Assembly: GCA_964646765.1 (NCBI GenBank)
Contig: CAZYIA010000001.1
Coordinates: 65,334-129,333, forward strand
Reading direction: 5' to 3'
DNA length: 64,000 nt
DNA from: an uncultured Candidatus Saccharibacteria bacterium
GTDB taxonomy: Bacteria; Patescibacteriota; Minisyncoccia; Phycocordibacterales; UBA9973
This document shows, piece by piece, positions 28,576 through 30,093 of this stretch (the first letter of the stretch is position 1; every line of letters begins with the position of its first letter). Both the position numbers and the translations under genes were made by a program. The notes under the pieces are model-generated. The model saw only the letters and a program-made list of their open reading frames with translations. It made no database searches and was not told where the DNA came from.

Positions 28576-30093
28576 TTAGTTATGGAGGACTTCAATTTTT
28601 GCGCCAATGCTGTTTAACCGTGCAGCAATGTCAGCATATCCGCGCGAAATAGAGTAAATATTTCGCAAAATTGATGTTCCTTCAGCGCCTAACATGGCGA
28701 TAAAGATACTAGCTGAAGGTCGAAGTGCTGGCGGACAAACAATTTGAGCACCCTTAAGTTTTGTTGGACCTTCAACAAATACACGATGTGGATCAACCAG
28801 GGTTACTTTAGCGCCAAGCTTATTAAGTTCGGTAAAGTAAATTGCTCGGTTTTCCCAAGTCCAATCATGAATGAGGGTTGTGCCAGAGGCTTTAATGGCG
28901 ATCGGTACAAAAAATGGGAGAGAGTCATTTTGAAGTCCTGGAAACGGTTGCGTGTGGAGTTTGTCTGTTGGGGCAGTTAGTTTAGAAGGGTAGAGGGTCA
29001 GGTCAACAAGTTCTGTTGTACCGTTTGAAGAAAGATAACGCTTCGAACATTTCATTTTCTGGCCCATGCGCTTGAGTTTTTCAAGTTCAAGTTCAAGGAA
29101 GTTTATTGAAACGCGCTTAATCGTGAGGGTTGAGTTCGTGCTTATAGCTGCCGCAATGAAGAACATGGCTTCAATCGGGTCCTCACTATTGTGGTGTTCA
29201 ATATTCAGATTAATATCAGCAACGCCATGCACTGTAAGTGTTGTGGTGCCAATGCCGTCAATTTTTACACCCATTTTTTCGAGGAGGAAACACACATCCT
29301 GCACCTGGTAGTTTGGCGGAGCCATTTTAATAACTGTTTTGCCAGGAATGCGAGCAGCAGCGGCTAGGATGGTAATGACGCCGGTATCGCTTGATTCATA
29401 CATTACGACTTCACCTGGATGAAGCTTTGTATACGAAATGTCATACCGATTTTCTTTGGTAATGGTAGTAACTCCAAGAGATTCCAAACCAAATTTATGT
29501 GCGGCAATAGTTCGTTCGCCCATTTTGCAGCCGCCAGAGTGGGGGAACGAGAAATTTTTAGCATAATGAAGAAGCGCACCAGAGAAAGTAAACGAACGGG
29601 TTTTCTTGGCAACGTCCTGGTTTAAATTTTTGATATTGAGTTTTGTTGGTGGAGTAATTTCAACGGTGCTGTCAGAAGTCCAGCGTACGGTTGCGCCAAG
29701 GCTTTCGAGAATTTCAATATAGCGAAATACTTCTTCCACCTTAGGCATGCCATGCAATGTTGTTTTACCGCAGTTTACTAAACATACAGCGAGCATATTT
29801 ACTGCGCCGTTTTTAGAGGTGTTTACCTCGATAGAGCCAGAAAGTTTTCGTCCTCCTTCAATAGCGAAGTCGATAGATCCTTGGGATACAGAAACGAGTT
29901 TACGCTCAAGAATTTCACTGATACGAGAAAGTTCACCAAGGGTAAAGTTTTGGCCGCCGCGCTCCATTCGAGCAATATTACTCTGAGAAGTAGCAAGAAG
30001 CTTAGCAAAAGCCTCCTGGGTAAGCCCGCGTTCTTCGCGGAGCTTCTTAATAAAAAAGCCAATTTTTTCTTGCTCAGTTACTGTTTTAGACAT
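28576..30093 (-). CDS. murA: UDP-N-acetylglucosamine 1-carboxyvinyltransferase fused to an N-terminal XRE-type HTH domain
   Basis: aa 1-65 (LREERGLTQEAFAKLLATSQSNIARMERG) form a Cro/C1-type HTH. The remainder aligns to MurA over its full length, e.g. IEGG..L.G.I.V..SKNGA. Confidence 0.85.
   Translation of the reverse strand: MSKTVTEQEKIGFFIKKLREERGLTQEAFAKLLATSQSNIARMERGGQNFTLGELSRISEILERKLVSVSQGSIDFAIEGGRKLSGSIEVNTSKNGAVNMLAVCLVNCGKTTLHGMPKVEEVFRYIEILESLGATVRWTSDSTVEITPPTKLNIKNLNQDVAKKTRSFTFSGALLHYAKNFSFPHSGGCKMGERTIAAHKFGLESLGVTTITKENRYDISYTKLHPGEVVMYESSDTGVITILAAAARIPGKTVIKMAPPNYQVQDVCFLLEKMGVKIDGIGTTTLTVHGVADINLNIEHHNSEDPIEAMFFIAAAISTNSTLTIKRVSINFLELELEKLKRMGQKMKCSKRYLSSNGTTELVDLTLYPSKLTAPTDKLHTQPFPGLQNDSLPFFVPIAIKASGTTLIHDWTWENRAIYFTELNKLGAKVTLVDPHRVFVEGPTKLKGAQIVCPPALRPSASIFIAMLGAEGTSILRNIYSISRGYADIAARLNSIGAKIEVLHN

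Follow-up and report, generated by a model that had tools for sequence, protein, structure and literature searches.

An N-Terminal Helix-Turn-Helix Domain on MurA and a Conserved Palindrome at Its Promoter: A Candidate Enzyme-Autorepressor of Patescibacteria

Introduction

Why an enzyme at the first committed step of peptidoglycan synthesis should carry a DNA-binding domain is the question raised by a gene in the 64-kb stretch of DNA analyzed here in its entirety (the window; contig CAZYIA010000001.1 of assembly GCA_964646765.1, positions 65,334 to 129,333, from an uncultured Candidatus Saccharibacteria bacterium), in which a Cro/C1-type (XRE) helix-turn-helix (HTH) domain is fused to the UDP-N-acetylglucosamine (UDP-GlcNAc) enolpyruvyl transferase MurA. 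The gene, referred to below as HTH-murA, is divergent from murB, and the DNA between the two holds an 18-bp perfect palindrome, which is conserved in front of the fused gene in other genomes. The explanation favored here, which is considered likely, is that HTH-MurA is a bifunctional protein, an enzyme and at the same time a repressor of its own transcription, i.e., a “trigger enzyme”. Transcriptional control of peptidoglycan precursor synthesis is poorly understood in bacteria generally and unknown in the regulator-poor, uncultivated Patescibacteria, and no account of such a fusion was found by full-text searches of the literature; in the databases the fused protein is named either MurA or “helix-turn-helix domain-containing protein”.

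Architecture and Distribution of the Fused Protein

The first-pass annotation, made from the DNA alone, had described the first 65 residues (29899-30093) as an XRE-family HTH_3 domain fused in frame to a full-length MurA. Both parts of this description were borne out, down to the peptide that it quoted: a single frame of 505 codons contains an HTH_3 domain (PF01381, residues 15-65, E = 5.5e-11, 42.8 bits against a gathering cut-off of 23), which is also matched by residues 1-70 taken alone (E = 2.7e-12, 47 bits), followed after a linker of 8-11 residues by a complete EPSP_synthase domain (PF00275, residues 79-491, E = 2e-43) with its catalytic residues kept. The AlphaFold2 model of the monomer, which has a mean predicted local distance difference test (pLDDT) score of 85.9, places the helices of the HTH at residues 7-21, 26-32, 37-44, and 52-62, with pLDDT values of 83-90 across residues 11-50 and below 50 at residues 68-71 of the linker. 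A profile search of the PDB matched the HTH to the solved XRE domains of C-proteins, HipB, SinR, HigA, and the 434 repressor, and in a PDB sequence search the N-terminus weakly resembled the controller proteins of restriction-modification systems.

The distribution of the fusion was followed in two collections. All of the 120 best homologous sequences carry both PF01381 and PF00275; they are 65-90% identical to the protein of the window, are 501-526 residues long apart from one of 492 and one of 679, and come from sources named Patescibacteria, Paceibacterota, Parcubacteria, and Nomurabacteria. A scan of GTDB with one genome per species gave 391 genomes with a relative, and each of the 80 best loci, which were fetched, encodes HTH-MurA in one frame. 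The origin in the candidate phyla radiation supposed by the first-pass annotation agrees with the source names of the homologues. Furthermore, a search with residues 1-130 against 1.84 billion cluster representatives returned 140 clusters at E ≤ 1e-10, approximately 100 of which cross the junction between the HTH and MurA, as estimated from the listed matches. Since the frame is unbroken both in the window and in some 200 relatives, a frameshift or a separate upstream open reading frame is ruled out as the origin of the fusion. One metagenome-assembled genome (MAG), CAYWEW01, contributes two different full-length HTH-murA genes (L009 and L068), each with its own palindrome, which is either a true duplication or the product of a mixed bin.

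Among the 80 species the mean pairwise identity is 68% for the HTH, 40% for the linker, and 72% for the MurA domain, and this similar degree of conservation shows both domains to be under selection. Nine residues of the HTH (R19, Q26, Q37, A41, R42, E44, G46, Q48, and N49) are invariant in all 80.

A Conserved Palindrome Upstream of HTH-murA

In the window, the palindrome TATATCATATATGATATA ends 32 nt upstream of the ATG of HTH-murA (30093) and 12 nt upstream of that of murB (30156). Its 16-bp core has a single match in the 64 kb, even when three mismatches are allowed, and the possibility that it is a genome-wide promoter motif or repeat was rejected on that count. The palindrome recurs in the 110 nt before the ATG in nearly all of the 80 loci. 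Among the fetched loci, which together comprise 708 kb, 91 matches with at most two mismatches were found, and 76 of them, spread over 75 loci, fall within 250 nt upstream of HTH-murA. The palindrome is accordingly present upstream of the gene in 75 of the 77 testable genomes; among the loci beyond those 75, three are truncated and the others have the site farther upstream or in a variant form.

The genes on the other side of the palindrome differ from genome to genome. In the window and in 25 GTDB loci the upstream neighbor is murB-like and divergent; in approximately 25-30 loci it is a co-directional NRAMP-type transporter gene, and other loci have, for example, the gene of an ABC transporter, of PriA, or of a porin-like protein. 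The site is kept across these differing contexts, and it therefore tracks murA and not the neighbor. Even the arm distal to murA is retained where no divergent gene is present, with 0.54 mismatches per 8 positions in 37 loci.

The palindrome also accompanies fused genes of distant lineages, which span 33 to 69% G+C. It abuts the ATG as an exact core in L201, lies 12 nt before the ATG as an exact core in L203 and L204, and occurs with one mismatch in L205 and in L206, where it heads an operon of NUDIX, nucleotidyltransferase, and HTH genes. The most G+C-rich of these lineages, L202 (GCA_018603905.1, an 877-kb contig of 69% G+C), has ATCTCATATGTGAGAT at 3972-3987, 13 nt before the start of an HTH-MurA whose catalytic residues are intact; the sequence immediately downstream contains a phage-type integrase gene and a further small XRE gene. 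In two further loci, L207 (protein P0151) and L208 (P0247), the palindrome is absent from the entire locus at up to three mismatches; L208, moreover, has a degenerate HTH that escapes Pfam.

Candidate secondary operators, found approximately 1.4-1.6 kb upstream of murA near an NRAMP gene in about 10 loci, were rejected. The palindrome-like sequence ATATCATACAAGATAT at these places (L029, 2476-2491, and its equivalents) lies inside a divergent gene and encodes a conserved peptide, D-Y-I-L-Y-D-I-F, and is thus a coding coincidence and not a second operator; no Rfam family was found at these sites.

Overlap of the Palindrome with Predicted Divergent Promoters

The arms of the palindrome double as extended -10 elements of the form TGnTATAnT. 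The 18-mer is mostly followed by CT or AT, which gives TGATATA(C/A)T, to be compared with the extended -10 consensus TGnTATAAT. The distance from the 18-mer to the ATG is 8-11 nt in 52 of 77 loci, implying a leaderless or near-leaderless mRNA in most relatives. On the murB side of the window, the element TGATATAAA ends 10 nt before the ATG, so that murB would have a very short leader or none. L203 has a TTGACA hexamer immediately in front of the palindrome, an arrangement that would place the palindrome in the promoter spacer. These promoter assignments are made at the level of consensus sequences; if they are correct, a protein seated on the palindrome would occlude the promoters of both murA and murB, as both arms overlap -10 elements.

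The same overlap admits a simpler reading, in which the palindrome consists of nothing else than two extended -10 elements set back to back for divergent transcription, and the HTH binds elsewhere or acts without DNA. Both arms, as TGATATA(c/a)T, do make good extended -10 elements, and the divergent murB-like gene needs a promoter at that place in the window and in the 25 GTDB loci that share it. This explanation is nevertheless regarded as quite improbable, in view of the distal arm that persists in the 37 loci with a co-directional upstream gene, of the single occurrence of the full palindrome in a 64-kb stretch of a genome that must hold many promoters, and of the survival of so AT-rich a sequence at 69% G+C. 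Two further observations that speak against it, the covariation of the palindrome with the protein and its presence in unrelated operons, are described below.

Covariation between the Recognition Helix and the Proposed Operator

The recognition helix has as its N-cap residue 36, which is Ser in most loci. In 13 loci the palindrome carries a symmetric change from T:A to G:C (TATAGC..GCTATA), and in all 13 residue 36 is Thr (TTQS in place of TSQS); Thr36 occurs in one of the 64 other loci, L013, the operator of which has the change to C in one arm. The association between the Ser36Thr exchange and the operator variant has a Fisher p value of 8e-14, uncorrected for phylogeny. When the MurA domains are arranged in a neighbor-joining tree, the covarying states fall into several separate groups, and Fitch parsimony counts six changes of the residue and five of the operator. 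The base that varies is the unconstrained “n” of the TGn motif, and promoter function therefore does not explain why symmetric changes at this base should follow a residue of the recognition helix.

A universal code that would pair Ser36 with one base pair and Thr36 with the other was rejected, since a T:A operator adjoins HigA-like relatives in which the equivalent of residue 36 is Thr or Lys; the covariation is limited to the fused family.

The Same Palindrome beside Stand-Alone Antitoxins

A scan of metagenomes for the exact 18-mer gave at least 120 contigs. Among the 120 listed, 41 have an HTH of the MurA-HTH subfamily within 1.5 kb of the palindrome, about 20 of them in HTH-MurA proteins and about 20 in stand-alone XRE proteins of 90-150 residues that are 37-47% identical to the HTH of MurA. 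Sequence of the same contigs distant from the palindrome, which served as a control, contained one such HTH match in 411 kb. In approximately 10 cases the stand-alone gene directly follows a Gp49/HigB-like toxin gene, and in these toxin-antitoxin loci (L103, L124, L126, L138, L148, L149, L163, L166, L185, and L192) the palindrome overlaps the start codon of the toxin gene (tatatcatatATGATATAt, which gives M-I-Y). The 18-mer thus accompanies related HTH proteins in operons unrelated to murA, which is the second of the observations that tell against a purely promoter-like palindrome.

The likeness extends to the end of the domain. Residues 64-69 of HTH-MurA show partial conservation, with the pattern R-x-I-[VLI]-S-[LI], and, by eye, match the C-terminal strand of the HigA-like relatives; “ILERKLVSVS” can be aligned, again by eye, with “VLGKNLKVEF”, and MurA begins approximately five residues later. 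The HTH therefore reaches the point at which its HigA-like relatives end, which suggests that a whole antitoxin-type HTH was captured together with its operator. The HTH and the operator appear, from these comparisons, to have been acquired jointly from a HigA-type antitoxin or an XRE autoregulator.

Such an origin could also mean that the HTH is an inert remnant, for instance of a captured antitoxin, or that it serves protein-protein contacts or the neutralization of a toxin instead of the control of transcription, and its closest stand-alone relatives are indeed HigA-like antitoxins. This is the least probable of the explanations weighed here, and very improbable in itself: the HTH is nearly as conserved as the enzyme, with its nine invariant residues, the operator is conserved along with the gene, and no toxin gene is adjacent to HTH-murA in the window or in the 80 loci.

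The MurA Domain and Its Pseudo-Enzyme Paralogues

The C-terminal 432 residues of the protein are probably a catalytically competent MurA, judged by the residues that are present. The catalytic and substrate-binding set of MurA comprises, in E. coli numbering, Lys22, Asn23, Arg91, Cys115 (or Asp), Arg120, Asp305, Arg371, and Arg397. Alignment with the E. coli enzyme shows an equivalent of every one of these eight residues, and K94, C189, R194, D305, R416, and R458 are invariant in an alignment of 31 sequences. Cys115, the equivalent of which is thus kept, is the residue that fosfomycin alkylates in canonical MurA. Residues 76-503 pass the cut-off of the MurA subfamily model NF006873 (315.7 bits against 297), and the score for NF009470 (232 against 552) is below the cut-off. 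The best sequence match in the PDB is the MurA structure 5ujs (1.9e-49); the matching MurA chains are all 418-458 residues long, and the N-terminal extension is absent from every solved MurA chain matched. In a Foldseek comparison with the PDB, the predicted fold agrees with solved MurA structures at TM-scores of 0.85-0.90, normalized to the target, with E values of approximately 1e-33, and AroA and NikO score lower than these. The MurA domains of the fused proteins group in a separate clade, with 28-48% mutual identity and approximately 25-29% identity to the MurA of E. coli and to canonical MurAs encoded nearby.

More distant members of the fused family have departed further from the enzyme. 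Seven of them (P0129, P0149, P0151, P0152, P0166, P0183, and P0200) are without both the Cys115 loop and Arg120, and several of the seven also without Lys22 or Arg397, while P0140 and P0247 keep the catalytic residues. Operators are present at the pseudo-enzyme genes of L201 (3498-5003), L203 (4001-5503), L205 (4001-5467), and L206 (4001-5554), and the surroundings of such genes often concern the cell wall: P0152 sits between a divergent operon (a 164-residue gene, murE, and a canonical murA of 438 residues, 328.7 bits) and murF; P0183 is divergent from a canonical murA-murB pair and lies upstream of ddl and a Mur ligase gene; and P0149 follows relA/spoT, with murB nearby. A canonical 438-residue murA stands beside the pseudo-enzyme in two lineages (L201 and L203/204). 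That these paralogues have kept both the HTH and the operator supports, at the level of sequence comparison, a regulatory role of the HTH-MurA architecture, and the Cys-less proteins may constitute a family dedicated to the regulation of peptidoglycan.

The pseudo-enzymes at the same time raise the possibility that the catalytically intact members, too, are mainly transcription factors, in which the MurA fold acts as a ligand sensor or oligomerization module and the housekeeping MurA is encoded elsewhere. The divergence of the fused clade from canonical MurAs, the score below the cut-off of TIGR01072, the canonical murA alongside some of the seven pseudo-enzymes, and the MAG with two fused copies are all in keeping with this alternative. 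In the clade of the window, by contrast, the catalytic residues examined are invariant, the MurA domain retains 72% pairwise identity, the NF006873 cut-off is passed, the gene is paired with murB in 26 of 81 places (the window and 25 GTDB loci), and no second EPSP-synthase-like gene is present within the 64-kb window. A protein that is mainly a regulator is thus considered unlikely here, if less so than either of the two alternatives discussed above.

Proposed Mechanism and Its Weak Points

In the model proposed here, the N-terminal HTH would bind TATATCATATATGATATA, presumably as a dimer, and its occupancy of the operator, the arms of which (TGATATA plus two bases) would serve as the extended -10 elements of murA on one side and of the divergent murB on the other, would block RNA polymerase at both promoters. 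Transcription for the first two committed steps of peptidoglycan synthesis would then fall as HTH-MurA accumulates, which amounts to negative autoregulation. DNA binding, dimerization, and repression by HTH-MurA are inferred from the sequence comparisons. Direct autoregulation, which had been put forward in the first-pass annotation, receives strong comparative support from the position of the putative operator in the murA-murB intergenic DNA, its overlap with the -10 elements, its independence of the upstream context, and its covariation with the protein. The binding of substrate or product (UDP-GlcNAc, phosphoenolpyruvate (PEP), or the feedback ligand UDP-N-acetylmuramic acid (UDP-MurNAc)) might further shift the affinity for DNA through the open-to-closed movement of MurA. 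This ligand-driven movement would change the dimerization of the HTH or its affinity for the operator, such that the enzyme would sense the supply of precursors and set mur transcription to match. This extension is speculative and rather doubtful; the sole hint that the output might depend on the state of the enzyme or its ligands comes from the pseudo-enzyme paralogues, which keep the fold, the HTH, and the operator.

It has to be noted that several observations count against an autorepressing enzyme. MurA is usually described as a monomer, which makes the formation of a dimer on a palindrome a puzzle, and the AlphaFold2 model of HTH-MurA is that of a monomer with a flexible linker. The right arm, proximal to murA, would stay conserved in any case as a -10 element, and in the window the operator, at 32 nt from the ATG, lies outside the 8-11 nt leaderless geometry. 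In about 80 of the 120 listed metagenomic contigs, the 1.5 kb around the 18-mer is devoid of related HTH genes; these contigs may represent chance AT-rich matches, truncated contigs, or other biology. The neighbor-joining tree behind the count of independent changes is crude, and the pairing seen in the fused family does not hold for the HigA-like relatives, in which Thr or Lys goes with a T:A operator. As for the enzyme itself, it scores 299.8 bits with the MurA equivalog model TIGR01072, below the cut-off of 392.7, and a separate canonical murA may be present elsewhere in the genome.

Features of the Locus and Neighboring Genes

The features of the locus are collected in Table 1. The immediate neighbors of HTH-murA are murB, which is probably co-regulated with it, and tsaD. 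In the 25 of the 80 GTDB loci and the several metagenome loci that share the divergent arrangement, murB is a gene of approximately 340 codons that was assigned by size, and by similarity where this was checked (L001, with tblastn). The longest open reading frame of tsaD (27375-28607) begins at a TTG and shares 32 nt (28576-28607) with the 3′ end of HTH-murA; if translation of tsaD in fact begins at an internal Met, as it may, the genes are tightly packed and do not overlap.

Converging on murB are genes of bacillithiol synthesis (31178-33012, minus strand), which encode BshA (TIGR03999, 401.6 bits against a cut-off of 273.7) and, beside it, a BshB1-like deacetylase that scores below the cut-off (152 against 182.5 bits); they are followed by an open reading frame of 265 residues (33036-33833, minus strand) with no NCBIfam match. 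BshA uses UDP-GlcNAc, a substrate that it has in common with MurA. Bacillithiol genes seem unexpected in a genome of the Patescibacteria type.

Table 1. Positions of the HTH-murA gene, its predicted promoter elements, and the divergent murB in the window
Feature	Position	Strand	Evidence or remark
HTH-MurA gene, 505 aa + stop, single reading frame	28576..30093	-	start ATG 30093
Cro/C1 (XRE, HTH_3) domain, aa 7-65, four helices	29899..30075	-	Pfam, AlphaFold2 model, PDB profile search
Recognition helix and N-cap, aa 36-44, S-QSNIARM	29962..29988	-	Ser36 covaries with the operator
Short linker, aa 66-73	29875..29898	-	low pLDDT, low pairwise identity
MurA (UDP-GlcNAc enolpyruvyl transferase) domain, aa 74-505 (432 residues)	28579..29874	-	
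Catalytic Cys189 codon (E. coli Cys115), loop S-G-G-C-K-M-G-E-R	29527..29529	-	alignments
18-bp perfect palindrome TATATCATATATGATATA, proposed operator	30126..30143	.	between divergent murA and murB
Extended -10-like element TGATATATT for murA, operator arm	30124..30132	-	
Predicted murA promoter: -35 TAGACT, -10 TATGAT (inside palindrome)	30156-30151, 30134-30129	-	consensus scan
Extended -10-like element TGATATAAA for murB, other operator arm	30137..30145	+	
murB (UDP-N-acetylmuramate dehydrogenase), divergent from HTH-murA	30156..31181	+	NF000755, 351 bits against cut-off 277

Implications and Comparison with Known Systems

A committed enzyme of cell wall synthesis thus appears to carry its own repressor domain, together with a precisely defined and highly conserved cis-element, and because the operator is defined the hypothesis is directly testable. 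The fused family may also represent an evolutionary series that leads from the capture of an antitoxin-type HTH and its operator, through a bifunctional enzyme-repressor, to pseudo-enzyme regulators in the vicinity of mur genes. Should the gating by ligands be real, the MurA fold would provide a new type of sensor module, one for UDP-sugars or PEP, and the Cys-less descendants of HTH-MurA would make up an unrecognized family of UDP-sugar-sensing transcription factors that govern peptidoglycan clusters of Patescibacteria; possible uses would include biosensors and insight into the regulation of the fosfomycin target.

The trigger enzyme concept is reportedly due to Commichau and Stuelke. The known examples include BirA, the biotin ligase and bio repressor, PutA, the proline dehydrogenase and put repressor, and NadR, and HTH-MurA resembles them in that a metabolic enzyme is joined to a DNA-binding domain with an operator, here a predicted one, at the promoter of its own pathway, an arrangement by which the level of the enzyme would feed back on transcription. 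It differs from all three in its parts, as neither the XRE HTH nor the EPSP-synthase/MurA fold is related to their domains, and we know of no trigger enzyme that controls the synthesis of peptidoglycan precursors. Canonical MurA proteins (those of E. coli and E. cloacae, and MurAA and MurAB/MurZ of the Firmicutes) share the fold and the equivalents of the catalytic residues, in contrast to which HTH-MurA is approximately 29% identical, belongs to a separate clade, and has the N-terminal HTH. The regulation known for MurA is by proteolysis (ClpCP with ReoM/ReoY) or by UDP-MurNAc feedback, not by self-repression.

A second type of comparison is offered by regulators that have incorporated an enzyme fold. 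In the BzdR type, to which HTH-MurA shows a weak NCBIfam match (NF006015), an N-terminal XRE HTH likewise precedes an enzyme-derived domain, in that case a shikimate-kinase-like sensor. The pseudo-enzyme HTH-MurAs (P0152, P0183, and others) resemble the evolutionary end-state that BzdR represents, whereas the protein of the window, in addition to having a different fold in the sensor position, keeps the catalytic residues that were checked and is probably still an enzyme.

The closest parallels to the HTH itself are found among autoregulators. Operator-binding autoregulation is established for the HigA-type antitoxins, with which HTH-MurA shares an HTH of 37-47% identity, the recognition helix QSN(I/V)ARxE.G.QNF, and the identical 18-bp palindrome at the promoter of the operon; it differs from them in continuing into MurA, in being without their N-terminal extension of approximately 35 residues, and in having no toxin partner, and for this last reason it is not the antitoxin of a toxin-antitoxin system. 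By sequence, the closest solved HTHs include those of C-proteins, for example C.Esp1396I and C.BclI, which, as small XRE dimers on palindromes that overlap their own promoter, provide a likeness for the arrangement proposed for HTH-MurA. They are, however, stand-alone proteins of approximately 80 residues that use two operators to activate as well as to repress, and their operator sequence is unrelated to the palindrome described here.

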